Positions 8,455-63,362 of a DNA stretch of 64,000 nt are shown piece by piece. Every line of letters begins with the position of its first letter. Position 1 is the first letter of the stretch. The notes under the pieces are model-generated. The model did no database searches and was not told the DNA's origin. It worked only from the letters and a program-made list of their open reading frames with translations. Position numbers and translations under genes: made by a program. The stretch comes from Chiloscyllium plagiosum (lineage: Eukaryota), in the NCBI RefSeq assembly GCF_004010195.1, contig NC_057749.1:17284466-17348465 (forward strand), in the 5' to 3' direction.

Positions 8455-8600
8455 GTCGATAGTGTGGAGCTGGAAAAAGCACAGCAGGTCAAGCAGCATC
8501 TGAGGAGCAGGGGAGTCCATGTTTCAGGTCGGAACGTTTCATCAGGACTGATGAAAGATTCTGACCTGAAACGTCAACTCGCCTGCTCCTCAGATGCTCC
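8455..8600. mobile_element. Fold-back Penelope pLTR-derived short element, degraded
   Basis: Inverted arms around ctgatgaa...gaaacgtc; homologous to 10685-10908. Confidence 0.7.
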
Positions 8601-8929
8601 TCACTTTATCAACTGCAAATTTGCCAGCACTTTCCTCTCAAGTTTGAATATTGGTTTTCCCTGTTATTGATAATCTTTCAAATTGTCTTGATGTGTGCAA
8701 GATGAAAATGCTCCCAGTTTTGCACTTACATAGTATACATGACCAGCGGTAGTTGCCCATCCTTAATTACCATGAATTTAGTGGCTTGTTTGGCAAATTG
8801 AGAGGACAGATAAGAGTCAACGACATTGTGGTGGATCTGGAGTCACGCACAGGCCAGACTGTTTTAAGGCTGGCAGATCAAAGGAAAGGAAAGACCAGTG
8901 GAGGTTTCCAATTTTTTTTCAATATTACT

Positions 8930-9700
8930 GAGACCAAGATATCAGAGCAGAATTAGGCCATTCAACCCATTGAGTCTGCCCCACCATTTGGTCATGTCTG
9001 ATGTGTTTCTCAATCCCATTCTCGCTGTAACCCTTGTACTTAATATCAATCAAGAACCTATCTACCTCTTAAATACATACAATGACTTGGCCTCCAATGC
9101 CCTCTGCAGAAATGAATTCCACAAATTATCTTCCCACTGTCTGAAGAAAATCCTCATCTCAGTTTTAAGGGGTTACCCCTTCACTCTGAGGCTGTCCCCT
9201 TCGGGTCCTAGTTTCTCCTCCCAATGGATACATCTCCATGTCTATTTTATCCAGGCCTTTCAGTATTCTGTAAATTTCCACCAGATCCCCACTCATTTTT
9301 CTAAACTCCATCAAGTACACACCCAGAATCCTCAGCTGCTCCTTATATGACAAACCCTTCATCACTTCAATCATGCTTGTAAAACCTCCTCTGAACCCCC
9401 TCCAGAGCAGCATATTTTCCTTTAGGTATGGGACCCAAAATTACTCTCAATATTCTAAATGTGGTCTGACCAGAATCTCCGCAGTACATCTTCTGCTCTA
9501 GCCCTCTTGATGTGAAAATTGTATTTGTCTTCCTAATTGCCAGCTGAACCTGTATGTTAATCTTAAGAGAATCCTGAGCCAAGACTCCTAATTCCCTTTG
9601 TGCTTCCGAAGTCTTTCCCCAGTTAGAAAATAGACTGTGCTTTTATTCTTCTTACCAAAGTGCATAATCTCTCACTTCGCTGCGTTGTATTCTGTCTGAA
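8930..9700 (-). mobile_element. Older CR1 LINE 3' fragment
   Basis: ORFs 9165..9413 (GLSYKEQL, GDLVEIYRILKGLDK) and 9367..9582 (LEGVQRRF). Confidence 0.8.
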
Positions 9701-10073
9701 CATTCTTCACCCACCATCAGCTGCCATGGTGGGATTTGAGCCCATGTCCCCAAACCTGGGCTTCTGGATTGCTAGTCGATTGACGATACCACTACAACAG
9801 CAATTTCCCCCCTTTATGAACTTTCTGAGATATATGTTTAAAGTGCTGCAGAAGTTCTAGTATTTTCTTCAACCCACTTTGTACAGTGAATGTGACTCCA
9901 GGAATTATGATATTATTTTGAGTTATTATGGATTCTGTTTTGTGACCCACTATAATACAGCTACTGCCAAAGTTTTCAGAATGAAAGCTGTGAAAATATT
10001 GTTGTAAACCATTCTTGTGTGCATAGTTAAAAATCTGATTATCATCACTTACAATATAACAGCTGCTACACAC

Positions 10074-10422
10074 AGTAGAATCCCTACAGTGTGGAATCAG
10101 GCCATTCAGCCCATCAAGTCCACATCAACCCTCCAAACAGCATCTCCCCCCACCCCAACCAGAACCCTGTAACCATGCATTTTCCATAGCTAATCCACCT
10201 AGCCTGTACATCACTGGACACTGTGGACAATTTAGCATGGCCAGTCCACCTAACCTGCATATCTTTGGATTGGAGGAGGAAGTTGGAGCACCCAGCAGAA
10301 ACCTACGCAGACACAGGGGTAATGTGCAAACTCCACATAGACACTTGGTAGAGGATGGAATTGAACTCGGGTCCCTGGTGCTGTGAGGCAGCAGTGCCAA
10401 CCACTGATCCACTGTGCCGCCC
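10074..10422 (-). mobile_element. HE1-like V-SINE (tRNA-derived head, V-domain, CR1-type tail)
   Basis: Minus strand reads ggcggcacagtgg...cactgctgcctcacagcaccagggacccgagttcaattcc then gtggagtttgcaca...tccaaagatatgcaggttaggtgga. Confidence 0.85.
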
Positions 10423-10684
10423 TGTAAACATTGTAACAATTTCCTATGTTTATGCATGTAAGGTGATCTCCATTTCTCAGATCCATTTTATTTTCATAAA
10501 ATCCTCAAAATGACTCAACTGTTATCTAAGTAAAACATCAGATAAGTTTTTGAAATGCAAACAGATTGTGTTAGAAATCCAACTGTGGCCAGAGCAAGTG
10601 TTAACATTTCTGATTGATGACTTTGCTCAGAACAAGTATGTGCAGTATTGGAGTCAGGCATTTATAGACCTAACTATCACAACT

Positions 10685-10908
10685 GAGAGTGTGGTGCTGG
10701 TAAAGCACAGCAGGCCAAGCAGCATCCGAGGAATAGGAGAGTTGATGTTTCGGGCATGAGCCCTTCATCAGGATGAAGGGCATTCCTGATGAAGGACCAA
10801 TGCCCAAAACGTCGATTCTCCTGCTCCTCGGATGCTGCCTGACCTGCTGTGCTTTACCAGCACTACACTCGTGACTCTGATCTTGAGTATCTGCAGTCCT
10901 CACTTTCT
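10685..10908. mobile_element. Fold-back Penelope pLTR-derived element with HHR-like cores on both strands
   Basis: Inverted arms, one-sided tail ending cactttct; flanking direct repeat cctaactatcacaact at 10669-10684 and 10909-10924. Confidence 0.85.
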
Positions 10909-11800
10909 CCTAACTATCACAACTCCTCTTTGAGATTTAGTCAAATCTGTGTCCATCGATGCTCATCTAAATAAGATGCCATAAGGTGGCATAAAATTCA
11001 TAAGGAATGTTTACATTCATTCTTTCACCGTGTTACCCTATCATTCTGTTTCATCTTTCATTAAACATCTTTGAAATAGAACATCCAAGACTGTGCAACA
11101 TAAGCTCAGTATTGCAATCATTCCCCATTATGCGTACAAGTCATGGCCTGGAAGTTGAGCATCTGAGCTGACTGACATTGAGCAAAGTTAAAAATCACAT
11201 AGGTTATAGTCCGACAGGTTTATTTGGAAGCACTAGCTTTCGGAGTGCTGTTCCTTTGTCAAGAAGCTGTGGAGCAGGATCATAAGACTTAAAATTTATA
11301 GCAAAGCATTGCAGTGTCATGCATGCATGCAACTGGTACAATACATTGAACAAATCTAGATTGCTGTTAAGTCTTTCATCTTTTAAAATGGGTTGCAGGT
11401 TTTTGGTTTATTAATATGTAACTACCAGAACTTCTTTAAGTCACATTCCTGAGATAACGTAAGGTTTTATTAAAAAAAGTGACATCTCTGCTCAGACAAT
11501 GCATTAAGCATGAGAGGTTTAAGTCTGCCTGTATCCCAATCTTGAGTCAGATTGGTTTCTGTTTCCAAAGCAGGAATTTATAAAATGTTACATGGATTGA
11601 CTACCTGCAGATTGTGTGCTTTTTGAACAAAATAGAATGTATCTGCAATTACAAGATCTTTGGGTGACCATCCTCCAAGGTGGACTTCAGGCTACGTAAC
11701 AACGCAGAGTGGCTGAGCAGACGCTGATACTCAAGTTTGGATGGCCTCAACTGGGATCTTGGGTTCATGTCACACGACAGGTGACGCCTCTGCACTCTAC

Positions 11801-13842: not shown

Positions 13843-14900
13843 TGTGAGAAGATTTGTAGCTCGGGTGCTCGTTGTTGTGGTTCTGTTCACCGAGCTAGGA
13901 ATTTGTGTTGCAGACGTTTCGTCCCCTTTCTAGGTGACATTCTCAGTGCTTGGGAGCTTCCTGTGAAGCGCTTCTGTGTTGTTGCCTCTGGCATTTATAG
14001 TGGTTTGTCTCTGCCACTTCCGGTTGTCAGTTCCAGCTATCCGCTGCAGTGGCCGGTATATTGTGTCCAGGTCAATGTGTTTGTTGATAGGATCTGTGGA
14101 TGAGTACCATGCCTCTAGGAATTCCTTGGCTGTTCTCTGTTTGGCTTATCCTATAATAGTAGTGTTGTCCTAGTCGAACTCATGTTGCTTGTCATCCGAG
14201 TGTGTGGCTACTAAGGATAGCTGGACATGTCATTTCGTGGCTAGTTGGTGTTCATGGACGCGGATCGTTAGCTGTCTTCCTGTTTGTCCTATGTAGTGTT
14301 TTGTGCAGTCCTTGCACGGGATTTTGTACACTACATTGGTTTTGCTCATGCTGGGTATCAGGTCCTTTGTCCTAGTGAGTTGTTGTCTGAGAGTGGCTGT
14401 TGGTTTGTGTGCTGTTATGAGTCCTAGTGGTCGTAGTAGTCTGGCTGTCAGTTCAGAAATGTTCTTGATGTATGGTAACATGGCTAGTTAGGAATGGGAG
14501 TTGGTTGTCCTTTTCTTCCTCTCTAGTGAATCGGATTCCTGTGAGTGTGGCGTTGATGATCCGGTGTGTGTTCTCTATTTCTGTATTTTTAATGATTACA
14601 AAGGTGTCGTCCACATATCTGACCCAGAGTTTGGGTTGAATTTGCGGTAAGACTGTTTGTTCTAACACGCATCATCGACGCCACACTCACAGGAAACACA
14701 TCGACCTGGACCCAATATACCGGCCACTGCAGCGGGCAGCTGGAACTGACAACCGGAAGTGGCAGAGACAAACCACTATAAATGCCGGAGGAAACAACAC
14801 AAGTGCTTCATAGGAGGCTCCCAAGCACTGAGGATGTCCCCTAGACAGGGGACGAAACGTCTGCAACACAAATTCCTAGCTTGGTGAACAGAATCACAAC
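13843..14900 (-). mobile_element. Poseidon-type Penelope-like element with inverted pLTR, inserted in L1 ORF2
   Basis: RT WVRYVDDTF (14453..14668); GIY-YIG NVVYKIPCKDCTKHYIGQTGR (14230..14481); inverted arms about 13874-14085 and 14695-14900; 12-bp TSD atacataagata at 13831-13842 and 14901-14912. Confidence 0.92.
14825..14864 (+). ncRNA. Minimal type I hammerhead ribozyme motif (predicted)
   Basis: GCA-CTGAGGA-T-GTCCCCT-AGAC-AGGGGAC-GAAA-CG-TC/TGC: intact CUGANGA and GAAA boxes, 7-bp stem II, GUC triplet, 3-bp stem I; activity not shown. Confidence 0.68.
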
Positions 14901-19200: not shown

Positions 19201-20665
19201 AATCTCCCAACTTCACACATTTAAAGCATTGCCTGAGCTGAGATGTCACCTTTTTTTTTCAGTAAAAACCTTAAGTTATCTTGAGAATGTGACTTAAAAG
19301 AAGTTCTGGGCTTTACATATTAATGAATCTCAAACCCATTCTAAAAGATGAAAGACTTAACAACATCTATGCTTGTTCAGTATATAGTTTTAGTTGCATG
19401 ATACTGTGAACTTTTGCTATAAATTCTGTGTCTTGTGATCCTGCTCCACAGCTACCTGATGGAGGAGCAGCACTCCAAAAGCTAGTGCTTCTAAATAAAC
19501 CTGTTGGACTATAACCTGGTGTTGTGATTTTTAACTTTGTTTACCCCAGTCCAACACTGGCACCTCCACGTCATAACATTGAGCAGGCATTTTCACTATT
19601 CAACTAATGGCTGATTTTTGACTGCCTCTTTTCCCAAGATCGTGAACTCTTGCAACATAAACATTGCATACTGCAAATGGATCCAAGTGTGATTGCTTTT
19701 TTGATATTCAGTAGATTTGCATTGTTGTGGGTTTGATCTTTGGGGTTTCCTCAGAATTACCCTTTTGGATTCCTCCCTGGCACCACATTAGAGGGTACCT
19801 GTTCAACCACAGTACACATGATAAATGCATTCTGAGGGCAACTCAGACAGTTACTAAGTATTGGCAACCACTTAAAAAAGCAGTAACAAGCGAATATCTT
19901 GAATTGGAAACTGATTTTATTTTTTCTCTGGTATTTCTTACAGCATTGTTTTCTCAACCTTAAAAGCAACTGAAAAGAAGTAGAAAGTTTTAGCACCGGT
20001 ATCCCCCTCCTTCCCGATCTTTTTTGCCTTCATCTTGAAGTAATCTTGGCTCTGTCAAGACACCTGTCTTGATCTTATATTTGGCTTAAATCGCTGGCTC
20101 TTATCACTGAACTGCAGGATCATTGCTTTTTCTGCACAATCCTAGAAGATACTTGGATTTGCAAAGCCTATAGCTCTTCTTAACTTGCCCTCACTCTGGA
20201 TTTTAAGTATCCCACCCAATCTTTTGGACAATATTGGGCAAAAGCTGTTTTGGTGCTTTTAAAGTTGTCTTATTTTGAATGAGCCACTAAAATTAGATTC
20301 TGTCTTCCCTGTCTGTCTTTGACAAAAGATCCCATTACATTATCCATAGAGACACAAAAGAGTCTTGCTGCCCAAAATATATCTGCCATCTCACTTGACT
20401 AGAATGGATTAATTGACCACTTACCTTATTATTGCATGTGGGACTTTTCTGTGTCTTAATTGTCTGCCCTGAAAAAAATTGCTTAAAAAAAATTAATGCT
20501 TAATTGACTCATAAGAGATTTGCTTTATCCCAAGAACATGAAAGATGCTATGCAAACGTGTGTTTTTGTTAACAAGAGGATGACACCACAAAACTTTGTC
20601 CGTTAGAGGTTAACAGTATTGCGGTTGAAAGAGTGAACAGCTTGGATATTGGTCAAGGTAGGAGG

Positions 20666-20846
20666 AAGAAAGTGAGGACTGAGATGCTGAAGGTCAGAGT
20701 CAGGAATGTGATGCTAAAAGAGCACAGCAGATCAGGCAGCATCTGAGGAGCAGGAGAGTCGACGTTTCAGGCATAAGCCCTTCGCTAGGAATGGGAAGGC
20801 TTATGTCCGAAACGTCGATTCACCTGTTCCTCGGATGCTGCCTGAA
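20666..20846. mobile_element. Fold-back Penelope pLTR-derived element
   Basis: aagtgaggact tail and inverted arms; 8-bp direct repeat gtaggagg at 20658-20665 and 20847-20854. Confidence 0.78.
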
Positions 20847-22309
20847 GTAGGAGGGAGACTGTTCTATGAGGTTCAAATGGAAACATCTGAATCTGTCATA
20901 ACCTACAGGATCAGATTTTCTCCAGCTGTGATCTTTTCAGATAACTACCTATTTTGATAATTTTGGCATTCTTTGAAAGCTGTTTCAACTTCTGAAGGCA
21001 TGTGTTTTAAAAATATGAAGCATCATTGAGGCAAGAACTTTTCCCATTAAGGTTGATCTTGTGATTCCTCATTCTAAGTTTCGTTGTGGAACTGTTGCAA
21101 AGGAGGCAAGATCATTTGCTTGAATTGAATTTATACCTTTAGAGTTGCATTTGCTCATAATGTAATTTCCAACAGCTCTTTGATCAGCCTAATAGTTAGA
21201 CACTGAGACAGTAAATCACTACTACGAAGCAACCTTATTTGCTGGATGTTTCAACAGAATGACTTCACTAGCCTGCAGATCTATCTGTGAAGTTGGTTTT
21301 ATGTTGATACAATCACTGGGTGACCATTGCTCAGCTGCATTTTATGACTTTGAATTTTATTCATCAGTCCCTCTTATATTCTTTACAGAATTTATTATAT
21401 TTCAAATTATATTATTTTTCATATTATATATTCATATTATATATTAAAACTATATTTTGAGCTGTCTCTGACAGCAATTTGTGTGCTTGTAAATTTGTAG
21501 GGGTTGGAATTAGCTCCTTTTAATATTAGAGTCTGATAGTATTAGTCCAAGTGCAAGATTAATTCCAAAAAAAACACCCTTCCACTTCAAATTATGTACC
21601 AAACTTTGTTGGTTCCAAATTTAAAGACTTAGTCTTCTATGTCCTGTGATACAGTTTATCTTCTGATGGGCATGCACTTGCTTTGCTTCTATGATTTATG
21701 ACTAGAGTAATTTACATTTTCAGTCAGTTTTTAATCAACAGTTAAACCAACCTCAAAGCTGGAATCACGACCTTATTCTTGAATCCAGTATATTATATTC
21801 CTTATTGTTGGGAGAAGGTGAAAATTTGATTCATCCTTTTAATCACTGTGCTGTAAAGGTAGATGCATATGTCTTTCAAAAAATGAACAATTGAGCACTG
21901 TGAACCAGGCATAACCTGGGTCTGGATGAGCTGGAAGGACAGTTCTATTGTTACATAGGATTCAATGATTTATGAGCTGTTTGGGCATGAAGGGACAGAG
22001 GAAGAGAATAATGAATAGGTTTTCCATTTCTAAGTAGCACGTAATGATCTTTCTCTGAAGTCTGTAATTATATATATTGAGTAAGGACAGGAATGGGCTT
22101 GGTTTTAATGGTCACTGCTGTGAAACAGCCTGTAATGTGCAGTGTTGAGACCCTCCACTAAAGAACAGGCAGAAGTGTAAGAGGATGACTAATACGTTTG
22201 AAGGTTATTGTAGAGAAGAGTAAATATGTTCAGGGAGAGAGGCTGAAAGTCAATGATAAAATTATACAAATTCTTCCTGACAACATTATTTTCCTTCAAA
22301 CTTTAACAG

Positions 22310-22407: not shown

Positions 22408-22991
22408 GTAAGATGCGATACCTGGAATGCCAGAAACATGCTGAATGGATTTGTAACACAGAGATGTTTTACACGGGAGCAAATTGTTAGATGTAGTGTT
22501 ATGGTTTTGATTAAAAAGCTTGGTTTAAAAAGCTGTAGCTTTTTCATGATGGATATCTTTCTAACCAATCTGTTCCAGGAAAAGAATGCCTACCTCTGGA
22601 GTAGGTGGAATCCAGCAGTCCTTGTTCAGCGATAGAGATGCTATCACTGCCCCACAAGAGCCTTCATTTTCATATGATTACTCCCAAGTCCCAGAATTTA
22701 TCCTTAATCCTGCTGAATTAAACACTTAGCCTGGATGCAGAAGTTTGCCTCAATTAGAATGTGATTAGAGTTGCAAGGCTAAGGAGTATAAAAGGAATTC
22801 CATCTTGATTCATGAGGCTGACCATCATCAAGGATTAACACTAAGCCATAAGATGATGTCTGAGAACATGATGTCTGCAGTAAATTGCTGCCATTCTCAT
22901 AACGTTGTAGAGCAGTTTAGGTGACGTACAGGAGGACTTGCAACAAGAAAATCATTGGGATTAATTTTGAACTTGGCTGTCTGGGTAGTAA

Positions 22992-23194
22992 GCTGAAAAT
23001 GTGTTGCTGGAAAAGCGCAGCAGATCAGGCAGCATCCAAGGAACAGGAGAATCGACATTTCAGGCATAAGCTCTTCTTCAGGCTTATGCCCGAAACGTCG
23101 ATTTCCTGTTCCTTGGATGCTGCCTGACCTGCTGCGCTTTTCCAGCAACACATTTTCAGCTCTGATCTCCAGCATCTGCAGTCCTCACTTTCTC
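22992..23194. mobile_element. Fold-back Penelope pLTR-derived element
   Basis: Near-perfect arms of about 80 bp plus one-sided tail; 15-bp TSD ctgtctgggtagtaa at 22977-22991 and 23195-23209. Confidence 0.88.
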
Positions 23195-27039: not shown

Positions 27040-27740
27040 AAGGAGAAAGTGAGGACTGCAGATGCTGGAGATCAGAGTTAAAAGTGTGCTGCTGGAAAAG
27101 CACAGCAGGGCAGGCAGCATCCGAGGAGCAGGAGACTCAATGTTCTGGGCATAAGCCCTTCAACAGGAACAAGGCTTGTGGGTTGGCGCTCAGAGATAAA
27201 TGGGAGGGGGTGGCGTTTAGGCAAATGGAGTGGGGTCACAGTTTGGCAGTGGAAGAGGCCCAGGACCTGCACAACCTTGACAGAGTGGGAGGGGGAGGTG
27301 AAATATTCAGCCACCGGGTGGTGGGTTTGGTGGGTGTGGGTGTCCCGAGATGTTCTCTGAAATGATTCACAAGAAGGTGTCCTGTCTTCCTGATGCAGAG
27401 GAGACCACACCGGGTGCAACGGATGCAGTAGATGACATTGGTACAGGTGCAGGTAAATTTCTGACAGATGTGAAAGGATCCCTTGGGGCCTTGGATGGAG
27501 GTGAGGGGAGTGATGTGGGTGCAGGTTTTGCACTTCCTGCGTGGCAGGGTAAGGTGCCAGGAGTGGGGTGTGGCTGGTGTGGGGGTTTGGACCTGACGAG
27601 AGAGTCGCGGAGGGAATGGTTGTAATGGTTTGGCAGTGGAGAAGGCCCAGGACCTGCATGTCCTTGACAGAATGGGATGGGAAGTTGAAGTGTTCAGCCA
27701 CGGGGCGGTGGGGTTGGTAGGTGCGGGTGTCCCAGAGATG
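27040..27740 (-). mobile_element. Penelope-like element fragment (GIY-YIG plus pLTR) with internal duplication; resumes at 29581
   Basis: ORF 27236..27811 CTCTNVIYCIRCTRCGLL; the pLTR is the same sequence as the fold-back elements. Confidence 0.82.
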
Positions 27741-29575
27741 CCATAGACTTGTAGAGGTGTACAGCATGGAAACAGACCCTTCAATCCAACTCGTCCATGC
27801 TGACCAGACATCCCAACCCATTCTAGTCCTACCTGCCAGCACCTGGCCCATATCCCTCTAAACCCTTCCTATTCATCTACCCATCCGGATGCCTTTTAAA
27901 TGTTGCAATTATACCAGCCTCCACCACTTCCTCTGGCAGCTCATTCCATAATGCACCACCCTCTGCGTGAAAACGTTGCCTCTTGGGTCTCTTTTATACC
28001 CTTTTATCTTTCATCTCTCAGCCTAAACCTATGCCCTCTAGTTCTGGACTCCCCCACCCCAGGGAAAAGACCACATGTATTTATCCTATCCATGCCCCTC
28101 ATGATTTTATAAACCTTAATAAGGTCACCACCTCAGCCTCCAACCCTCCAGGGAAAACAGACCTAGCCTATTCAACCTCTCCCTGTAGCTCAAATCCTCT
28201 AACCCTGGCAACATCCTTGTAAATCTTTTCTGAACCCTTTCAAGTTTCACAACATCTTTCCAATAAGAAGGAGACCAGAATTGCATACAGTATTCCAACA
28301 GTGGCCTAACCAATGTCCTGTATAGCCGTAACATGACCTCCCAACTCCTGTACTCAATACTCTGACCAATAAAGGAAAGCATACCAAACGCTGCCTTCAT
28401 GATCATATCTACCTGCGACTCCACTTTCAAGGAGCTATGAACCTGCACTCCAAGGTCTCTTTGTTCAGCAACACTCCCTAGGACCTTACCATTAAGTGTA
28501 TAAGCCCTGCTAAGATTTGCTTTCCCAAAGTGCAGCACCTCGCCTTTATCCAAATTAAACTCCATCTGCCACTCCTTAGCCCATTGGCCCATCTGGTCCA
28601 GATCCTGTTGTAATCTGAGGTAACCTTCTTCACTGTCCACTACACCCCTAAGTTTGGTGTCCTCTGCAAATTTACTAACTATACCTGTTATGCTCACATC
28701 CAAATCATTTATATAAATGATGCAAAGTAGTGGACCCAGCCCCAATCCTTATGGCACTCCACTGGTCACAGGTCTCCAGTCTGAAAAACAACCCTCGACT
28801 ACTACCCTCTCGTTTCTATCTTTTAAGCCAGTTCTGTATCCAAATGGCGAGTTCTCCCTGTATTCCATGAGATCGAACCTTGCTAACCAGTCTGCCATGG
28901 GGAACCTTGTCGAACGCCTTATAGATCACATCTACTCTGCCCTGATCAATCCTCTTTGTTACTACTTCAAAAAACTCAATCAAGTTTGTGAGGCATGATT
29001 TCCCATGCACACAGCGATGTTGACTATCCCTAATCAGTCCTTGCCTTTCCAAATACATATACATCCTGTCCCTCAGGATTCCCTCCAACAACTTGCCCAC
29101 GACCGAGGTCAGGCTCACCGGTTGATAGTTCCCTGACTTGTCCTTACCACCTTTCTTAAATAGTCAGACCACATTAGCCAACCTCCAGTCTTCAGGCACC
29201 TCACCTGTGACTTTCAATGATACAAATATCTCAGCAAGAGGGCCAACAATCACTTCCGTAGCTTCCCACAGAGTTCTAGGGTACACCTGATCAGGTCCTG
29301 GGGGTTTATCCACTTTTATACATTTCAAGACATTTAGCACTTCCTCCTCTGTAATATGGGCATTTTTCAAGATGTCACCATGTATTTCCCTACATTCTAT
29401 ATCTTCCAAGTCCTTTTCCAAAGTGTAAACAGACGCAAAATACTCGTTTAGTATCTCTCCCATCTCCTGCGGCTCCACACAAAGGCTGCCTTGCTGATCT
29501 TTGAGGGGCCCTATTCTCTTCCTAGTTACCCTTTTGCCCTTTATGTATTTGTAAAATCCCTTGGATTCTCCTTAA
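27741..29575 (-). mobile_element. CR1 LINE, 5'-truncated (about 1.8 kb, RT domain plus 3' end), inserted in the Penelope fragment
   Basis: ORFs 29164..29478 (PGPD, EVPEDWRLANV), 28816..29118 (KSCLTNL, KAFDKVPH) and 28125..28745 (SKFAEDTK); agatg repeated at 27736-27740 and 29576-29580. Confidence 0.92.
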
Positions 29576-29604
29576 AGATGTTCTCTGAAACGATTTGCAA
29601 TAAG

Positions 29605-30595: not shown

Positions 30596-30655
30596 TAGGT
30601 TTTCAATTTACATTCTATGTTGCCCATCGGTAATTGCTAATTTGTTCTATTTTAG

Positions 30656-39137: not shown

Positions 39138-39352
39138 AGAAAGTGAGGACTGCAGATGCTGGAGATCAGAGCTGAAAATGTGTTGCTGGAAAAGCGCAGC
39201 AGGTCAGGCAGCATCCAAGAAGCAGGAGAATTGACGTTTCGGGCATGAGCATTTGGGCATCCCTGAAGAAGGGCTCATGCCCGAAACGTCGATTCTCCTG
39301 CTCTTTGGATGCTGCCTGACCTGCTGCGCTTTTCCAGCAATACATTTTCAGC
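39138..39352. mobile_element. Fold-back Penelope pLTR-derived element with intact HHR core at 39263-39290
   Basis: 15-bp TSD cctttccccactgag at 39123-39137 and 39353-39367; CTGAAGA-A-GGGC-TCAT-GCCC-GAAA-CG-TC. Confidence 0.88.
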
Positions 39353-41520
39353 CCTTTCCCCACTGAGCCTTGGTGGCAGCTGTCCCAAGCTTTAGTGTGT
39401 GCCTCATGTAGTCCTGGACCATGGAATGTGCCAGTCTGGAACACTTGATCAACTCCTCGCTCTGGGAGATCAACAAGGTTCAGGCAGACCATGAGCGTCA
39501 TTCACAGAGTTGATGGTCCTCCAGTCATAGTCGACGTTTGTCTCGGTGTGTGTCTTGGGGAAACAGACAGCACAGAGCCCTGTGTCACGGAGCTGCTCGG
39601 GATGAGCCTCGACAGAAATAGCTGCATCTTCCTCCAGATTTCCTTTGCAAAGGCACATTCTAGAAAGAGACATGTGACAGTCTCACTCCTTTCGTAGCTG
39701 CTTCAAGAGCAGCTTGTGGTGACGCAGCCCGACCAAGGGTACATGAAGGATCTGATGGCTAGTGCTCTTCTCATCACCAGCCAAGCCATGTCTTGGAAAG
39801 ATCTGGTGATGAAGCGTTCTGCCCAATGACTTTGACAGTCTGCTCAGGGAGCCACACGACAGGATCCATCCTGTCCTTTTCTCACAGGGTCTCAGGGACA
39901 CTGTGTTCTGACCACTTCCTGATGGAGTTGTGGTCAAAGGTGCTTCTCTTTGCAAATTTCTCCGCAAAGCACAGGTGATACAGAAAGGTCCAACTACTTG
40001 GAGGATTCCGCAGTGGTGAGACCAGTCCCATCTTTTGCAATACCAAGGACAGGTAGAACCTCAGTACTTAGTGAGACTTGGTGTTTGTGTATCAAGGGTC
40101 TATGTACAGCTTGATGCTGCTGCACACAAAGGATGAGGATGATGTTGGGAACATTCCTCTGGCCATCCAGGGTTTTGTACTTGGGGTCCCTGCAGACGCA
40201 GTCCATCTTAGATCAGCAGAAGAAGTAGAAGATGGCTCGGGTGACTGCAAGAGCATGATTTCAGGGAATGGGTCAGACCTGTGCCATGTAGAATACACTT
40301 GCTGACCAGGGTTTCACCCACAATGGAGAGAAAGTGGTGCTACCAAAACGACCAGCTTCTGTTTCACTTTGACAGCGCACTCTTCCCAAGACTTTGTGCA
40401 CCCCCCAGCCCCTCCAAACCATATTCCCAGCACCTTCAGGTAATCTGTCCTGACGGTGAAGGGGATAAAGGATCAGTCAGCTCAGTTCCCAAAGAACATG
40501 GCTTTGTTCTTGCCTCAAATTACCTCGGTGCCAGTGGCCAGTTTGAATTGGTCGCAGATGTTCATGGGTCTGCCCACTGACTGCAGATCAAAGCAGAAAA
40601 TGGTGACATAGTCCATGTACAAGGAGGCTTTGATCCACAGGTCGCCCTTCCCAGACTTGCATCCTTCCTGATGGACTCCGCAAACACAGACACAAGACAA
40701 GAGAGAGTAACCTGCCCTGCCCTACTACAGATCTGGTTGGCAAGCTTTCTGATTCCCACCCATTAATTAAGAATGCACTAACGATGTTGGTGTAGAGCAG
40801 TTGGATCCTATTGCAAATCCCCCCCTCCCCCCAAAGTCCAATTTAGAGAGCATGTCCCACATGTATATGTGCGATATACTGTCAAAGGCACTCTCCTGGC
40901 CCAGACTGATGAGGCAGGTGTCCATCCCACTGTCCTCTGAGGCTCTCAGAGATTGTCCTGCCCGGTACAGCACAGGTTTAGTCAGAGTGCATTGCCGATC
41001 CCAGAGCAGACCTGACCTGGTTGACAGTGACCTTAGACCCGTTCTTGTAGTCTGCATTCAGCAGTGAAATTGATTGCTAATTTCTAATTACCACCCTCTT
41101 TCCCCCTTCCACTTGTAAACGAAGGTGATAATACGTTTCCTCATGGATTTGCGCATGCTACTTGACAGAAGCATACTGGCGTACACCTCCAGCAGGTCCT
41201 GGCCAATCAAGTCCCACAGCGCCATATACAACTTGGCTGGTAAGCTGTCGCTTCAGGGAGTTTTATCCTTTTCTAAGGGGACGAGATTGAGTTGGGATAT
41301 CTGGTCGGCATGAACGGGTTTGACCGAAGGGTCTGTTTCTATGCTGTGACTCTATGGCTCAAGGCCTTGATCAGCTCATCCAGAGATAACGGTTAGTCCA
41401 GCTTCTCCTGTGTGCTGATATTGAAGACCTGCATGAAAGAGGACAGGCGCGACTGGTTGGCTGCACTGTCTGTGGACTTCGTGTCATACAGACTGGCACA
41501 AAAGAATTTGCTCATCCTCA

Positions 41521-41642
41521 TGAAGGGCGTAAGCCCGAAACGTTAACTCTCCTGCTCCTCGGATGCTGCCTGACCTGCGGTGCTTTCCCTGCGCCACACT
41601 TTTCAACTCTGATCTCCAGCATCTGCAGTCTTCATTTTCTCC
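41521..41642 (+). mobile_element. Single-arm copy of the same Penelope pLTR family
   Basis: tgaagggcgtaagcccgaaacgtt...gcatctgcagtcttcattttct; atcctca repeated on both sides. Confidence 0.75.
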
Positions 41643-42427
41643 TGATCCTGATCCTCACTATGTCGGGCTGAGATGATATTATCATGCCATCTGCTTTCTT
41701 CAGGCTGCTGAGCACAAAGCACTTGTACAACTTCTGGAAGAAGAAATGTGAGCATGTTTCATGCTGCTTCACGCTGTGGACCAGAACATTATCTTGGAGG
41801 CTACGAAGGCAAAATGAGAGGCTTGCTGGCTTTTCACCTCCTGGATATCATCTGTGACATTGCCCAGGAGAAGCTTCTGCATCGTTTTCTGCAGTTTGGG
41901 CAGCTTTCTCTACCTCTTTCTCTCCTTCTGAACACCTTTTGAGGGTAAAGTACCTCTTCATGTTCCCCTTGGCTGTTTCCCATCAGTCCGATTGAAACTC
42001 AGAGGGGCTTCACTGTTCTTCTGAGCTCCTCACTATTTTCTGGTGTCAACAGTTTCATGTTCAGCTCCCATGCATCCTTGCTGGCCCACTAGTCATCCTG
42101 TAGGTGACAGCAGGAGGCAGTGGTCAGAGAAGAATACCTGCTTGATGTTGGCAAATCTGACCAAGAACATGCAGGACTTAAACAAGAAATCTGACCTTGT
42201 GTAGATAGATCCATCTGGGTGTACCTATGCTGCACTCTATCTGCAGGAGTGCTGAAGACCTTGTGCAACTTGGTGACTTCAACTACTTCCATCAGGAATC
42301 TGGATATGGAGTCCAGTTTGCTGACAGCCCCTCCAGATCATCCGACCTCATTGATGCAGTTGAAGTTTCCAGCCAGAGTGACCGAACTGGACTCGCCAGT
42401 AGAAGTGGGAGCTACTACAGGACATCC

Positions 42428-42525
42428 AGCTTTGACAAAGGGTCAGTTAGACTCGAAACGTCAGCTCTTTGCTCTCCTTACAGATGCTGCCAGACCTGCT
42501 GAGATTTTCCAGCATTTTCTCTTTT
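42428..42525 (+). mobile_element. Short Penelope-pLTR-like repeat of another family (second copy about 55672-55810)
   Basis: cagctttgacaaagggtcagttagactcg...cagatgctgccaga shared by both sites; interrupts the Tx1 endonuclease region. Confidence 0.6.
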
Positions 42526-48985: not shown

Positions 48986-49083
48986 CTGAAAATGTGTTGC
49001 TGGAAAAGCGCAGCAGGTCAGGCAGCATCCAAAGAGCAGGAGAATCGACGTTTCGGGCATAAGCCATTCCTGAAGAAGGGCTC
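48986..49083 (-). mobile_element. Truncated fold-back Penelope pLTR-derived element
   Basis: ctgaaaatgtgttgctggaaaagcgcagcaggtcaggcagcatcc...cgtttcgggcataagc, nearly identical to the 22992 and 39138 copies. Confidence 0.82.
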
Positions 49084-54020: not shown

Positions 54021-54329
54021 TAAACAATGACTGTGGCTGCCTCAAATGCAAAGTGTTTTTCTTAAGTGTGTAGGTTAATTTCAGTGCTGTTCCTGACTTT
54101 GTGAATCTTTTAATATACTTATTTTCCTTCACAATTGGCACATAGCTAAGTTATACATGTTTGTTATTAAGTGACTTTAATATAATTCTCTGTGAGGTGA
54201 GTTAATTAACATATAATTATTTTAGTTTAAGCCTACCAGAATTATTGTTTCTTTTACTTCTTGTTCCAAACTGATCACAAACATCATGATCTGGTGAATG
54301 TTTTTTAAACCAACCTTCTATTTGACATT

Positions 54330-54984
54330 TTAAAATGTGGAAAAGCACAGCAGGTCAGGCAGCATCCGAGGAGCAGTAAAATCAACGTTTCGGGCATAAA
54401 CCCTTCATCTGGAAGGAGGGGTGGGGTGGTGGAGAAGGGAGCTGAGAGATAAATAAGAGGATGAGGGTGGAACTGGGCGGGGGGGGGGCAGGTAGCTGGG
54501 CAAGTGGGATCAAGAGGGTGATGCTGGGTTGGATCTGGGATGAGGTGGGGGAGGTCAGAATTGGAAACTAGTGAAGTCAACATTGATGCCATGTGGTCGA
54601 AGGGTCCCGAGGCAGAAGATGAGGTGTTCTTCTTCCAGTTGTTGAGTGGCTTGATTTTGGCCGTGGGAGAGGCCCAGGACTTGCATGTCCTTGGTGGAAT
54701 GGGAGGGGGAGTTGAAGTGTTCAGTCACAGGGCAGTGGGGCTGTTGGTGTGTGTCCCAGAGATGTTCCCAGAAATGCTCCGCGATTTGGCGTCCTGTCTC
54801 CCCGATGTAGAGGAGATCACATCGAGAGCAACGGACACAGTAAATGAGGTGGGGAGATGTGCAGGAAAAGCTGTCAGATGTGAAAAGATCCTTTAGGCCC
54901 TTGGACAGAGGTGTGGGGGAGATGTCAGCACAGGTTTTCTCGATTCTTCTCGACTCTGACTGCCCAACATCTGCAGTCCTCACT
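54330..54984 (-). mobile_element. Penelope-like element 3' fragment (GIY-YIG plus pLTR, short inverted piece)
   Basis: ORF 54555..54983 LIYCVRCSRCDLLYIGETGR..HFN..EEHLIFCLGTLRPHGINVDF; 14-bp TSD ttctatttgacatt at 54316-54329 and 54985-54998. Confidence 0.9.
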
Positions 54985-56749
54985 TTCTATTTGACATTGT
55001 CCATTTTTAACATGTAATTCTTCTTGTACAGTGTTGACCCTGGAATTTCAGCGGTCTTAACTGGTGGGTTGGAATATTTGAAATTTCACTAGTTTGTCCA
55101 TATGAATCATAAAAGTTACTCTGCACAGATCACAGATTATTCCCTCCAAGCTTAGGTTGCATTCAAAAGGAGCATTGTGCAGTGCTAAGGTATACTGGTG
55201 CATAAGAATACCATTAGCCATAGATCAATTCCTGATGAATTAGGAGCATCCATTACATGGTATGGAAGGAGAGTCATTTGAGGCCACTTTCAGGATAAGG
55301 GAATTGGACATAGTGGGTATGAGTGCAATGAACTGTTGTTCTAGCATTTAAATTAAAACTGATTTGATGTAACAGCAGCCAGAAGACTGTAATGCAGGAT
55401 GAGAATTAGCTTACATTTCATTTTGTTTTTTCTTTGCTATATTGGTATCAATAACTAGCTAATCCTGGGTAATATGGTTGGAAATAAATAAGACTTAGAT
55501 ATATGGGGGCAAAGGGGTGCTGCCAATAGTTTGGATAAATCATTTTGGTTGTTTTTGAATCTGTCCAATAAACAATCATTTTTCTGATATCCATGATGGA
55601 GATTTGCAAAGATTAAGGCTCTCACTGCTCCCTGTTATTCCGTAGAACAGATAGTTTGTAAAGGAGTAACAACAGCTTTGACAAAGGGTCAGTTAGACTC
55701 GGATTGTCAGCTCTTTTCTCTCCTTACAGATGCTGCCAGACTTGCTGAGATTTTCCAGCATTTTCTCTTTTTTGGTTTCAGATTCCAGCATCCGCAGTAA
55801 TTTGCTTTTAACCTGATAATTACAGCTTCTTATTCACATAGAGTATCAAATAGGATAGCCTGGTCAGTGCAGTGCAATTTAATCTGAGGTTTTATTTTAT
55901 TTTGTGTAAATCAAGCACAAATTGGAACCAGAAAGTGACTGACATGTAATCCCTGATGAAAACAAAATTGAATTTTCATAACAGTAACATGATGTATAAT
56001 AGCTGTAAATAATGGATATCTGTATGGCTGGTTGGTAGCATTTTCCTGCTCCAAGATGGACCTCTGACTCATTGGCCCACAGGATCAAATAGATGTTCAA
56101 GTGGAGAGGGTTATGATTATTATCACCATTGTTCCTGTCCAGGAGATGGTGAGCGATTGGTTTGAGATTGCTATAAGATCCTGGATCATGTTACTTAAGT
56201 ATGAAACCTCATGACTGAGACCAACATGATTTGGCTGTGACCTATATTGTCAGTGAACAATAAACCCAACCCTTGGGACAACCAACACTGCTAGAATATC
56301 TTCCAGACTTGGTTATCTTATGAAAAATATCATTACTTCAGAAAATTATAAAAATGTAGAATTGCTGAAATTCTGAGAGAGAGCACTTGGAAACATAAAT
56401 ATAGGTTAAAGGTATAGTTGAGAGTCTTCCATTCAAGCTCAATATTCTCACGAACATTTTCTGTTCTTGTAACGAATCTGGTGCTTTTAAAGAAAGTGTC
56501 ATCCGTATACCTTACCATATCTCAGAAGTGTTTGAAAGGTCTTCACAATTAATCAATTATTTATTTGAAAACAATAATACTTTAATATGACAAATGTGGC
56601 ATCTGATTCATGCACAGCCATTTCCCACAAAAAATTGATTTAATCATAAATTACAGAAGAAGCCATTTGGCCCATTGAGTTTGTCCTGCCAATGGTACTT
56701 AATGTCATGGAAAGAATTACCAAATCTGAGTAAGACCATAAACAAATGG

Positions 56750-59324: not shown

Positions 59325-60432
59325 GTCTGTACTGTGTAAATAATTGTCATCCATTGCTCTAGAAGAGTACTGAATAGAAATTGGAGGGGGTATCGACCTT
59401 CTGAACAGTGGAGTGCTTGAGCCAAAGAGTGTACTTTATGCAGTGCATCTAACATCCAGAGCAGGGAAAAGTCATGATTGATAGATGTGAAGCTAGAAGA
59501 ACAGAGCAGGTCAGACAGCATCTTAAGGGGTTTTGAGCTCTTCCAGCTTCACATCTATCAACTCCGACTTCTAGCATCTTAGTCAGGGAGAAGTCATGAT
59601 TCAGTCCCCAGTCTGTACTGACTTGACAAATATCAGCTGGAAAGCTATGATGCCCCATGATTAAGGAGAGACAAATAAGCACATTGCAGCTCCTGATCAT
59701 AATCCAGTTGCCCTTATTGAGACTTAAGTCTTGATATTATTTCTTGATATAGTATCAGTCAAACTTCATGTCATGCTTTCCATGATGTAGTGCTTTATCA
59801 TACTGTCTATGATAAATTAATACTTTCTGGCTAGAGATCTTCTGAAGTTAACCCTCCAAAAGTATATGATGGCTTTGATCAGTGGAAGCATACATTCACC
59901 AGAACGATATAGGGGCTAAAGGGATTAAATTATGAGGACAGATTGTACTGATGATCTATGCTTGCATCCCTTTACTATAGATGATTAAAGGCATATCAAA
60001 TTGATGTGTTCAAGATGATTAATGGTTTTAATGGGTACTGTGGAATTGTTGCTGCTAATGGGAATAAATTTATTTCTTCTTGTACATCATGGGTTATAAC
60101 ATTTTAAAGTTAAAAGTTAGACCATTCAGAGTGATTTCATGGGGCATCACTTGTAACGTAGTGGAAATTTCTCCTTTCCCAAAAAGATTTTGAGTCTGGG
60201 CATCAATTGAAACTTTAAGAACTATAATTGAATGATGGTAGTGTCCTCTTTCTACAATCCTAAAAAAATAGGAAATTGGAGGATGTCCCTGTGGTGTTGT
60301 ATATCCAAATGAGTTGGTTTCCCTCAGTCAATGGGGAGAAGGGTGATGGAAGTAGTGGAAATTACCTTCAATGAGAAAAGAATAGTTCAAGTTTTGTGTA
60401 AAGATTTCTAGCTTGGGTGCCGATTGCAGTTT

Positions 60433-60747: not shown

Positions 60748-60750
60748 CAG

Positions 60751-61956
60751 TTGTTGTGGGTATGTTCACTGAGCTGGGAATTTGGTTTGCGGAGGTTTCG
60801 TCCCCTTTCCAGGTGACACCCTCAGTGCTGTGGAGCCTCCTGTAAAACACTGATGTAATGTGTTGGTTGGAATTTATTTTGTTCCCACTGTTTCCGGTTG
60901 CCGGTTCTGGTTGTTCGTTGCAGTGGTCAGTATATTGGGTCTTGGTCAATGTGTTTGTTGATGAAGCCAGTGGATGAGTGTCAAGCTTCTAGGAATTCTC
61001 TGGCTGTCCTCTGTTTGGTTTGTCCTATTATTGTTGTGTTGTCCAGTCAGATTTGTGATCCTTGTCATCTCTGTGCGTAGATACTAAGGATAGCTGGTCC
61101 TAGCATTTGGTGGCTAGTTGATGCTCATGAATGCGGATGGCCAGTTGACTGCTTGTTTGTCCAATATAGTGTTCCGTGTAGTCTTTGCATGGAATCTTGT
61201 ATACTATGTTTGTCCTGCACATGATGGGTATTGGGTCTTTTGTTCTGGTGAGTTATCTGAACGTGGCTGTCAGTTTATGGGCTGTCATAAATCAGAGTAG
61301 TCAGAGGAGTCTGGCTGTCAGTTCCAAGACGTTTTTTTAATATAAGGTAGAGTGGTTAGTGTGTTGGGTCGTGGCATGTCCTCGTCGCGTTGTCTGTCTG
61401 CCAGGCATCTGTGGATGAAGTTGCAGGGATATCCTTTCTTGGCAAAGACTTTTTAAGGTGCTTTTCTTTTCACAGGTCAGGAGTGCTGCAGTGTTTTGTA
61501 GCTGTTTTAAACAGAGTCCGAATGCAGTTTCTCTGTGTTTGAGTGGTGGTTATAATTCAAAATCTGGTCTATGTGTAGTTTTTCTGTCAACTTTTGTGCA
61601 TTCCTTGTTCTGTGTTCATTCTACCATCACATCCAGAAATGGGAATTGATTGTTAATTTCCTCCTCTCTCATAAATTTGATCCCTGTGAGCATGATGTTG
61701 ATAATTCGGTGTGTGTTCTTGATTCTGTTCTTTTAATTATTACAAAAATACCCCAACAATAAACACATTGACCTAGACCCAATATACCGACCACTGCAAT
61801 GAGCAACCAGAAGGAGTGGGCATGAAACCAAATAAAGTCTAACTGACAATAAAGCAGTGCTCCTCAGGAGGCTCCACAGCACTGACGATGTCACCTAGAA
61901 AGGGAACGAAACATCTGCAAACCAAATTCCCAACTCTCTGAACAGTCCCACAACAA
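60751..61956 (-). mobile_element. Poseidon-type Penelope element with inverted pLTR, ending 70 bp before a MYO9A exon
   Basis: Termini ttgttgtggg / cccacaacaa; body homologous to 13843-14900; HHR-like motif at 61879-61918. Confidence 0.85.
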
Positions 61957-62026
61957 GTGCAGATAAACAATAAGTTATGCAAATAAAAAATGAGATCAAT
62001 CATTATTTCTTTTATGTGTGTTGTAG

Positions 62027-62222
62027 GATTTTCGAGAAAAGAATACTGACCACATGCGTCCCGACATTGTCGCACTTCTGAAAAGCAGTAAGAACGCCTT
62101 CATCAGCACTCTGATTGGCATTGACCCAGTAGCTGTCTTCCGCTGGTCAATACTGAGGTCCTACTTCCGAGCAGCGGTGGCTTTCCGAGAGGCTGGAAAA
62201 TGCTATGTTGTGAAGAAACCTG
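62027..62222 (+). CDS. MYO9A: Myosin IXA exon entering the class IX loop-2 insert, [65 protein letters not shown](G)
   Basis: gtgttgtag acceptor and gtaagg donor; 196 nt, phase 0/1; overlaps track ORF 62054..62242; gene continues beyond both window edges. Confidence 0.95.
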
Positions 62223-62288
62223 GTAAGGGGAAGCGTGGGTAATTTCATGCATTCACTCGTTGGGTATAGTTTAAGAAAATGGTCTAGT

Positions 62289-62650
62289 CATAGAATCCCT
62301 ACATGGAATCCGAGAGTTCCTATGTGTGGAAGCAGGCAATTTGGCCCATCGAGTCCACAGTGATGCTGTAAAGAGCATCCCACACAGAACCACCCCTCTA
62401 CCCTTTCCCTGTAATCCTTCATTTCCCATGACTAATCCACCTAGCCTTCTTATCACTGGACACTATGGGCAGTTTAGCATGGCCAATTCACCTAACCTGC
62501 ACATCTTTGGACTTTGGGAGGAAACTGGAACACCAGGAGGAAATCCATGAGACAGGGAGAATGTGCGAAGTCCACATGTACAGTCACCTAAGACTGGAAT
62601 CGAACCCGAGTCCATGGTGCTGTGAGGCAGCAGTGCTAGCCACTGTTCTG
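62289..62650 (-). mobile_element. HE1-like V-SINE
   Basis: Homologous to 10074-10422. Confidence 0.83.
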
Positions 62651-62854
62651 CATTGTGGTAATATCGCTGGACCATTAATCCAGAAATTCAACTAACATTC
62701 AGAATTCAACTAACCAGCAGATGGTGGAATTTGTATTTCTTATATATAAAAAAAGTCTGGAATTAAGAATTACTGATGATTGTGAAATCATTGGTTGCCG
62801 GAACAACCTATGTGATTCACTAATGTACTTCAGGGAAGGAAATCTGCCATCCTT

Positions 62855-63362
62855 GCCTGGGACACACGCACCAAACAATCCCACCGCCCTGTGGCCAACC
62901 TCTTAAACTCCCTCTCCCACCTCTGCCAAGGACATACAAGTCTTGAGCCACTGCCACTGCCAAATCCTAGCCACCCAACAACTTGAGGAAGAATGCCTCA
63001 CCTTCTGCCTTGGGACCCTTCAACCATATGGCATCAACATCAACTTGACTAGTTTGCAAATCTCCCCTTCTCCATCTCATCTCAGATCCAACCTGGCACT
63101 GTCCTCTTGAACTGTCCTACCTGAAAACCCTCCTTCTCACCCATCCACTCCATCCTCCCCACTGACTTATCATCATTACCCCACACCTGCATTCACATAT
63201 CACCTTCCCAACTATCTTCTCCCTCGCCCCAATTCCATCCTCCTATTTATCTCTCGGCCCCCTTCTCCCTCACCTTCCTGATGAAAGTCTTATGCCCAAA
63301 ACATCGATTCTGCTGCTTCTCGGATACTGCCTGTCCTGTTCTTTTCCAGTGCCACATTTTTT
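62855..63362 (+). mobile_element. Penelope-like 3' fragment plus pLTR
   Basis: Reverse-orientation homologue of 54330-54984; cctgatgaaagtcttatgcccaaaacatcg core. Confidence 0.8.

Follow-up and report, generated by a model that had tools for sequence, protein, structure and literature searches.

Fold-back stubs in a shark genome as probable truncated insertions of a Neptune-type Penelope-like element

EN+ Penelope-like elements (PLEs) leave insertion units that, in the portions of the literature drawn on here, consist of a terminal repeat (pLTR), an adjacent inverted and 5ʹ-truncated pLTR, a tail of 30–40 bp and a target-site duplication (TSD); the tail is optional in the published inverted-pLTR units (PMC3846280, PMC8557442). 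The endonuclease of EN+ PLEs has as a defining feature, in the second of these accounts, a CCHH motif whose two cysteines lie between GIY and YIG (PMC8557442). Minimal hammerhead ribozymes have been described in part of another account as pairs on opposite strands, 100–700 bp apart (PMC4209133). For the Poseidon PLE of the anole, the available text reports that the protein cuts and extends both target strands in vitro, that reverse transcription begins at two adjacent internal sites bounding the tail, and that ribozyme cleavage is dispensable (PMC11167929).

We analyzed short fold-back copies in a 64-kb stretch of a shark genome, which we call the window. The small hairpin inserts exist, and they represent the known PLE pattern of an inverted copy plus a tail rather than a ribozyme-driven or MITE-like novelty. 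We consider it likely that these short copies, or stubs, are dead-on-arrival insertions of a Neptune-type PLE that has been cut down to its terminal repeat, with the fold-back formed at each insertion. The truncated-Penelope option raised by an earlier, sequence-only reading is the one supported: the arm is shared with GIY-YIG fragments, the tail is one-sided, TSD length is variable, and the centres differ.

Fold-back copies and their coding relatives

A profile built from 10 arms in the window gave 21 arm matches at 14 loci, 20 of them with E<1e-3 and together covering, with the remaining match, 1,813 bp (2.8% of the window). The same profile gave no matches to the reversed window, so that the family of short fold-back copies first noted by eye is far above chance. 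A search of metagenome, genome and viral contigs with a 25-base arm pattern gave no match, in line with a repeat that belongs to vertebrates. Arm boundaries (Table 1) were fixed partly by eye, from alignments. The scope is the 64-kb window, which contains no intact element and therefore shows neither a 5ʹ pLTR nor a transcription start nor a master copy.

Table 1. Positions of fold-back copies, coding fragments and associated features in the window
Feature	Position	Strand	Description
c1	8430..8616		two-armed; fold-back of a distinct subfamily, stem II different
c1 left arm		-	most of tail; adjoins LINE 3ʹ end
c1 right arm			breaks at ~+52, then ambiguous remnant; no TSD
c2	10685..10908		tail-less arm on minus (to +87); short templated insert at centre; tailed arm on plus (to +123)
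c2 TSD	10669..10684 (left), 10909..10924 (right)	+	16 bp
c3	20666..20846		arm plus tail (minus), then short inverted arm to +58
c3 TSD	20658-20665 / 20847-20854		8 bp
c4 (young subfamily)	22992..23194		tail-less arm on minus (0 to +90); tailed arm on plus (+11 to +124)
c4 TSD	22977-22991 / 23195-23209		15 bp
c5 (young subfamily)	39138..39352		tailed arm on minus (+11 to +123); templated insert; tail-less arm on plus (-2 to +90)
c5 TSD	39123-39137 / 39353-39367		15 bp
Complete minimal hammerhead	39263..39290	+	CUGAAGA, bulged A, 4-bp stem II, GAAA, CG, UC
Predicted hammerhead cut	after 39290
c6	41511..41644	+	lone arm plus tail, without inverted arm; TSD uncertain, 7 bp exact
c7 (young subfamily)	48986..49082		tail-less arm on minus (+10 to +89); second arm breaks off (~-4 to +13); no TSD
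c10	59480..59583		tail-less arm on minus (+38 to +90); short, partly tailed arm on plus (+68 to +112)
c10 TSD	59462-59479 / 59584-59601		18 bp, one mismatch
f27	27041..27745	-	endonuclease fragments, 3ʹ UTR, decayed hammerhead (27139-27166), arm, tail; no TSD
f27 endonuclease			linker CxxC, GIY-YIG with CCHH; second fragment 27628-27745
f27 5ʹ side			adjoins CR1-type LINE
f54	54330..54988		~620-bp tail-less arm (minus): GIY-YIG frame 54555-54956, UTR, hammerhead
f54 tail-only arm	54948-54988	+
f54 TSD	54316-54329 / 54985-54998		14 bp
f63	62857..63367	+	endonuclease C-terminal fragment, UTR, decayed hammerhead, arm to tail-less site
f63 possible TSD	62849-62860 / 63368-63379		12 bp, one mismatch

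At least seven short copies had been noted, mostly as two-armed fold-backs. The copy at 41521 is not a fold-back but a lone arm plus tail; that at 48986 has one full arm and a second of only ~17 bp, and the copy placed at 8455 really begins at ~8430, where its left arm, with most of the tail, adjoins a LINE 3ʹ end. The TSD-bounded fold-back at 59480–59583 had been overlooked.

Exact TSDs at the 10 loci named in that reading are 16 bp (10685), 15 bp (22992), 15 bp (39138) and 14 bp (54330), followed by shorter ones of 8 bp (20666), 7 bp (41521), 6 bp (62855) and 5 bp (48986); 8455 and 27040 have no exact TSD. Among 2000 random boundary pairs, none reached 10 bp, 6 reached 8 bp and 29 reached 7 bp. 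Hence, the four clean TSDs of 8–16 bp reported earlier are confirmed, the 8-bp one being the weakest, and the 14-bp TSD at 54330 is an addition. No TSD at c1, c7, f27, 29520–30596 or 60750–61960 exceeds chance. TSD length varies (8, 14, 15, 15, 16 and 18 bp) in the TSD-bounded two-armed copies, a small sample of six (c2, c3, c4, c5, c10 and f54).

All six of these units are head-to-head, with the 3ʹ ends of the element facing outward, and all six carry a tail of ~34 nt on one side only. The tailed side ends at ~+123 and the other side ~34 nt earlier, at ~+89: the tail-less end lies at +87 to +90 in five of the six, and also in c7 (+89) and f63 (~+86–92). In 13 of 16 arms the inner end falls within -7 to +11, at the front edge of the hammerhead, which suggests that the arms are run-off copies from the 5ʹ end of the RNA. 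Three copies fit less well: the short arm of c3 ends at +58, the tail of c10 is short, and c1 may have tail sequence on both sides. These would require later deletion or extra start sites.

The arms of c4, c5 and c7 are 91–98% identical, yet the three copies have different centres and opposite polarity. Differing centres, as first claimed, therefore hold even among copies that are 95–98% identical, which indicates that the inversions are built insertion by insertion. Within a copy, subfamily letters are common to both arms (c1, c4 and c5).

The arm is the 3ʹ repeat (pLTR) of the endonuclease-coding copies at 27040, 54330 and 62855 in the window. At 54330 the tail is found at the other end of the copy and on the other strand (54948–54988), and 62855 has none. 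With its long ORF-bearing arm and tail-only arm inside one TSD, f54 ties the stubs to ORF-bearing insertions.

The GIY-YIG frames at these three loci are 62–66% identical to P0001, a shark protein with reverse transcriptase (RT) and GIY-YIG whose source label is Chiloscyllium punctatum and which has the RT motif YIDD, a thumb, a CxxC linker and a GIY-YIG with CCHH. Relatives of 813–816 aa have RVT_1 followed by a C-terminal GIY-YIG, so that RT and endonuclease in one ORF are seen through homologues; the window holds the endonuclease end only. A Pfam search of 11 window frames gave no GIY-YIG match in the PLE frames, but the homologues uphold the endonuclease call. For the CCHH motif, CxxC is present in both window frames, the first H is invariant and the second H is present in f54. 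The linker is C-x4-CxxC in the 813–816 aa relatives, and f27 shares part of it as RRKCKTC before the endonuclease. Neptune is marked by an additional, zinc-finger-like linker, CX2-5CxxC, placed between RT and endonuclease; it is complete in the relatives, and in f27 its first C lies across a frameshift. RT phylogeny is the means of placing the clade, and also of telling Neptune from Nematis. We use the name Neptune-type, with the reserve due to an assignment from this linker and from vertebrate occurrence, for a family whose RT lies outside the window. No ORF-bearing copy of the young subfamily (c4, c5 and c7) is present in the window. A second, Poseidon-like family at 13843–14900 has the same layout, with a long arm with tail, a 210-bp inverted tail-less arm and a 12-bp TSD.

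Insertion of the fold-back copies

How might such units arise? The RT/GIY-YIG protein of the element would make a staggered cut, 8–18 bp apart. Element RNA would then be copied into cDNA from both 3ʹ-OH ends, with one priming event at the tail end and the other at the inner site, and both cDNAs would halt near the 5ʹ edge of the RNA or at the stem II hairpin. Joining of the cDNAs head to head, through microhomology and short templated hops, followed by repair, would leave a unit with inverted arms and a single tail, flanked by a TSD of variable length. The one-sided tail and the shorter-site ends of the shark copies match the two RT start sites of the anole PLE, as given in the available text (PMC11167929).

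We tentatively propose, as one possibility that may well prove wrong, that a stub records the action of a single dimeric PLE complex, which primes both nicks on one RNA with fixed roles (tail-end RT and inner-site RT) and runs off just before the hammerhead, giving a “strong-stop”-like 5ʹ pLTR product. If true, this model would account together for the tail being asymmetric, for the arms meeting head to head, for f54 having an arm that is tail only and for stubs greatly outnumbering ORF copies, and the shark genome would be a very large in vivo record of how PLEs insert. We found no published statement of the model in a search of largely non-subscription literature.

The strongest alternative keeps the Penelope origin but derives the mirror arm from self-priming: a cDNA or antisense transcript folds at the palindromic stem II and is copied, and endonuclease or repair trims the tail. 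The centre coincides with, or is next to, the self-complementary stem II in six of the seven two-armed short copies other than f54 (c1–c5 and c7, not c10), the two arms have subfamily letters in common, and self-priming on an antisense template was proposed for the same head-to-head junctions in the part of Arkhipova et al. 2013 drawn on here (PMC3846280). However, f54, c10 and the unit at 13843–14900 carry sequence in each arm that is absent from the other. Since the arms of f54 do not overlap and lie under one TSD, simple fold-back copying of one cDNA cannot yield it, although f54 could have begun as a long palindrome and lost the greater part of one arm afterwards. The tail-less end also coincides with an RT start site reported in vitro (PMC11167929, in part). 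We therefore regard self-priming as rather unlikely. The main use of the copies is as a large natural data set on PLE integration: ratios of tailed to tail-less ends, together with inner breakpoints, can separate two-ended priming from self-priming.

Still less probable, in our judgement, is a separate non-autonomous family in which a ~130-nt RNA (arm plus tail) from its own source copies is mobilized in trans by the Neptune protein, with the fold-back still formed at insertion. Coverage of arm plus tail exceeds that of the ORF ~20–200 times in raw RNA reads, and by a wide margin in DNA contigs, and both the clustering of inner ends and the lack of an ORF-bearing young copy in the window are in keeping with such a family. 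Nonetheless, run-off from the 5ʹ pLTR of a full-length RNA predicts the same excess and clustering, and the ORF depth of f27 is biased by its divergence plus the 80% cut-off. One architecture is common to ORF-bearing and stub copies, as in f54. No RNA start or end peaks were seen in one poly(A) single-cell run, of which ~2% was read and whose type cannot show small circles.

Thousands of records in public runs stop at the tail tip (27041–27042), with unrelated flanks. Opposite-strand read joints at 27071–27083 / 27133–27169, among the joints listed, were considered as tail-only arms like that of f54, and loose read ends at 27133–27135, among the loose ends listed, lie near the cut site. Both fall at places where f27 departs from the majority of copies, and the consensus of the loose ends runs on into sequence of the element, so we treated them as alignment clipping. 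Subfamily-specific UTRs are a further possible source of the loose end at 27169.

The hammerhead core

The arms had been described as hammerhead-bearing. A core motif does stand at the arm head, but it is decayed in most arms: a relaxed core pattern matches 4 of 16, and the full motif given in the sequence-only reading is found in only one (39263–39290, c5, plus strand). A search with hammerhead models had been suggested as a check, and an Rfam search of the window gave no hammerhead at E≤10. Its 12 weak matches were led by hairpin-shaped microRNA models, far below the gathering score. The stubs resemble MITEs or microRNA hairpins and can be mis-annotated as such. Palindromic “Chompy” repeats of crocodilians may also be linked to Penelope, a link that plays no part in our argument.

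In folding predictions, stem II pairs with a probability of >0.96 when one arm is folded alone, but of 0.0 when the complete fold-back transcript is folded. The hammerhead would thus be a passenger in the stubs, locked in the long hairpin of a read-through transcript. The stubs appear to be located in introns of a myosin gene, and read-through RNA would then contain double-stranded stems of 50–90 bp.

The sequence-only reading had also offered a retrozyme-like, ribozyme-processed family, replicating through a self-cleaved or circular monomer RNA. We consider this very improbable, and for these copies it is largely refuted. In its favour are the minimal type I hammerhead motif, complete in that single arm, and the argument, in the part of a recent preprint available to us, that PLE pLTRs gave rise to retrozymes, which are present in a cartilaginous fish (bioRxiv 10.64898/2026.07.22.740005). 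Against this, there were no head-to-tail tandem units with a hammerhead among the 10 tandem repeats recorded, and the cut site (+28/+29, counting from the first C of CUGANGA) is not the boundary of any of the 16 short arms. The core is predicted to be buried in a hairpin of -85 to -165 kcal/mol. Moreover, with hammerheads on opposite strands a single transcript holds one core, and monomers of minimal hammerheads fail to cleave in vitro. A MITE moved by a DNA transposase that recognizes the inverted arms is scarcely credible: the copies are short, palindromic and numerous, but TSDs of 8 to 18 bp refute it, the 34-nt tail makes the ends asymmetric, centres vary by copy, and the arm belongs, as its terminal repeat, to an RT/GIY-YIG element, a partner that in the window codes for GIY-YIG and no transposase.

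Comparison with known systems

The comparisons below refer to the portions of each source drawn on here. Non-LTR retrozymes are, like the shark copies, short, non-coding and PLE-related, with a type I hammerhead. They are arranged as tandem units, head to tail, have ribozymes that are canonical or competent as dimers, and produce circular RNAs (PMC7229834; bioRxiv 10.64898/2026.07.22.740005), whereas the shark copies are head-to-head and span the cut site.

Minimal PLE hammerheads share several features with the shark arms: CUGANGA, a bulged base before stem II, a G-C closing pair, no helix III loop, a palindromic 15.2–16.2 pair, and solo and opposite-strand paired copies from truncated PLEs. 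Stem II is 4 bp in the shark arms, versus the 7–8 bp published for Schistosoma, and helix I seemingly has only ~2 firm pairs, unlike that of published minimal hammerheads. That account, in the part consulted, names no cartilaginous fish.

Poseidon_Ac of Anolis (Frangieh et al. 2024, PMC11167929) resembles the shark family in the two RT start sites bounding the tail and in what the proposed insertion route requires, namely cutting and extension of both strands with ribozyme cleavage dispensable; its RNA has no ends at the cut site. It belongs to the Poseidon clade, whereas the shark family has a Neptune-type linker, and the head-to-head unit is not modelled in what we saw of that paper.

A close match is with EN+ PLE insertion units (Arkhipova et al. 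2013, PMC3846280; Craig et al. 2021, PMC8557442), which share the head-to-head inverted repeat, the one-sided tail and the palindromic junction. TSDs are variable in both, at 8–10 bp in the published units and 8–18 bp in the shark copies. The published units mostly bear ORFs, whereas the shark copies are mostly the repeat alone and are very dense in the window. The architecture is, in the text available, already published for PLEs (PMC3846280, PMC8557442, PMC4209133); here it is found in a shark genome.

Fold-back copies: ends and joints

Self-BLAST of the window and a profile made from ten window arms recovered all ten loci named in the sequence-only reading and four extra ones (42436, 47872 (weak), 55727 and 59482). 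In the reversed window, 0 matches were obtained. Of the extra loci, 42436, 47872 and 55727 belong to a more distant family. The fold-back family is real.

Coordinates of features in the window
Feature	Position	Details
Stubs c1 to c7, c10	8430-8616; 10685-10908; 20666-20846; 22992-23194; 39138-39352; 41511-41644; 48986-49082; 59480-59583	
Endonuclease-bearing copies f27, f54, f63	27041-27745 (-); 54330-54988; 62857-63367 (+)	
Second PLE family	13843-14900	Poseidon-like endonuclease; own hammerhead at 14828; tailed long arm and 210-bp inverted tail-less arm; 12-bp exact TSD
Second-family copy	29522-30596	inverted pieces; RT-thumb and endonuclease pieces non-overlapping; tail
Second-family copy	60750-61960	inverted pieces; adjoins SINE-like repeat
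Third, more distant family	42427-42537; 55672-55800; 47862-47916	partial arm and GAAACGTC core end in common; stem II and tail differ
P0001 tblastn match	54956-54588	62%
P0001 tblastn match	27556-27240	66%
P0001 tblastn match	27779-27618	63%
P0001 tblastn match	62858-63032	
Exon-like stretches, myosin motor sequence	30680-30772; about 62030-62140	plus strand; by translation

Arms were numbered with the leading C of CUGANGA as +1, which places the predicted ribozyme cut after +28. Outer ends form two classes about 34 nt apart: tail-less, at +87 to +92 (c2, c4, c5, c7, c10, f54, f63), and tailed, at +123 to +126 (c2, c3, c4, c5, c6, f27). The f54 tail ends at about +119-123, and c10 (+112) and c1 (+113-117) have short tails. 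Exact target site duplications (TSDs) at the ten named loci measure 16, 15, 15, 14, 8, 7, 6, 5, 0 and 0 bp; among 2000 random pairs, lengths of at least 10 bp occurred in 0 and of at least 8 bp in 6. The c10 TSD is 18 bp with one mismatch. The tail is confined to one side in 6/6 TSD-bounded two-armed copies, as the sequence-only reading had claimed; of the at least seven short copies that it described as mostly two-armed, c6 has a single arm and c7 and c1 are damaged. At the tail ends of c2, c4, c5 and f54, the first 1-4 TSD bases also match the last bases of the tail, hinting that priming uses microhomology.

Inner ends, for which arm boundaries were set partly by eye, lie between -7 and +11 in 13 of the 16 short arms; the others are both c10 arms, at +38 and +68, and f54's tail-only arm, at +84. 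That centres differ between copies is borne out by the young subfamily c4, c5 and c7, whose arms are 91-98% identical yet joined differently: 0 directly to +11 in c4, and -2 to +11 via a short templated insert in c5, while in c7 the arm stopping at +10 is the tail-less one. At least three subfamilies form fold-backs. Subfamily letters are common to both arms in c1, c4 and c5; minority letters are never shared between arms in c3, and c2 has four shared and one private.

Within a single 14-bp TSD, f54 combines a 620-bp endonuclease-bearing tail-less arm with a 40-bp tail-only arm. The second-family unit at 13843-14900 has the architecture of the Neptune-type stubs, its inverted arm being 92% identical; no TSD was found at the other two second-family copies. 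Stubs and copies that carry an ORF thus form a single continuum.

Parent element, hammerhead and setting

The protein best matching the endonuclease frame 54555-54917, P0001, carries the source label Chiloscyllium punctatum, and has the RT motif YIDD, a thumb, a linker CxxC and GIY-YIG (Pfam E 0.0046). A linker zinc-finger motif is described as a mark of Neptune or Nematis, as against Poseidon (PMC8557442). We call the putative parent Penelope-like element (PLE) Neptune-type from the aligned linker motif. In f27, two same-orientation endonuclease fragments (27241-27352 and 27628-27740, 85% alike) are a partial tandem or nested insertion.

The sequence-only reading described the copies as hammerhead-bearing. 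The arm motif does fit the minimal type I hammerhead of PLE terminal repeats (pLTRs), described as having a bulged base before stem II, a helix III without loop and a palindromic 15.2-16.2 (PMC4209133), but it is decayed in most arms: the relaxed core is present in 4/16 and the full motif in just 1/16, and an Rfam search of the window gave no hammerhead match. In predicted folding of five copies, on both strands, whole fold-back transcripts form one hairpin (-85 to -165 kcal/mol); for c2 and c5, stem II pairing probability is 0.96-1.0 in a lone arm versus 0.0 in the whole copy. The two cores lie on opposite strands, and therefore the dimer required by minimal hammerheads should be unable to form within one fold-back transcript.

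The window is repeat-rich vertebrate DNA with LINE RT and endonuclease frames. For 30680-30772, 40/40 weak PDB matches are myosins (E 0.1-0.95); given two exon-like myosin motor stretches, the family copies are probably intronic, within a myosin gene. Two copies, at 8430 (c1) and 27745 (f27), directly adjoin the 3' end of a LINE that we take to be CR1-type from its RT/endonuclease frames.

Public reads

From organism A, records of two DNA-type runs and of two RNA-type runs were aligned to 26900-27610 at 80% likeness, giving 45,513 and 88,480 mapped contigs (two runs) and 3,402 raw RNA reads; related sequence is listed in runs from four organisms. Records stopping at the tail tip (27041-27042) with unrelated flanks number 1,204, 3,321 and 848. 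RNA depth, on both strands, is about 1,700-2,100 across arm and tail versus 10-74 across the ORF. The reads show that stubs are in very large excess, with depth biased by f27 divergence and not a measure of copy number. The RNA depth pattern is compatible with passive read-through, and no RNA start or end peak was seen over 26900-27610. Within the tail, some joints return by about 33 nt (27073 to 27041, with similar ones nearby), suggesting that certain copies have a tail duplicated in tandem; opposite-strand joints (27042 to 27080/27090) suggest tail-to-tail neighbours. RNA run X21 has somewhat more A>G difference sites (51) than the DNA-type runs (32 and 36). The DNA being unmatched, this surplus is not evidence of A-to-I editing in hairpin copies, though such editing might contribute to it.

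Proposed insertion mechanism and known systems

For an anole PLE, Frangieh et al. (PMC11167929) showed cutting and extension of both target strands, two adjacent internal RT start sites separated by the 30-40 bp tail, a predicted protein dimer, and dispensable ribozyme cleavage. Carried over to the shark copies, element RNA would be primed by both nicks of a staggered cut, from the tail end for one nick and from the inner site for the other; both cDNAs would halt at the RNA front edge or stem II and then be joined head to head. Priming within the 5' pLTR of full-length RNA would necessarily yield a 90-130 nt product, which would account for the inner-end clustering and the stub excess. The rival, fold-back by self-priming (PMC3846280), accommodates f54 and c10 only if deletion came later. 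The retrozyme-like, MITE-mimicking option of the sequence-only reading is not supported: the stubs fail the tests for retrozymes and for MITEs, with no head-to-tail array of the unit among the tandem repeats of the window and with TSDs of varying length. None of the 16 short arms starts or ends at the ribozyme cut site.

Descriptions of typical PLE insertions (PMC3846280, PMC8557442) include an inverted pLTR, a tail on one side and a TSD, and the TSD-bounded two-armed copies have all three. A 2014 paper (PMC4209133) already reported opposite-strand pairs of minimal hammerheads at spacings of 100-700 bp. The anole tail is given as 30-40 bp (PMC11167929), and the outer-end difference here is about 34 nt. 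The stub architecture is already known, and the stubs add a further PLE family to this pattern.
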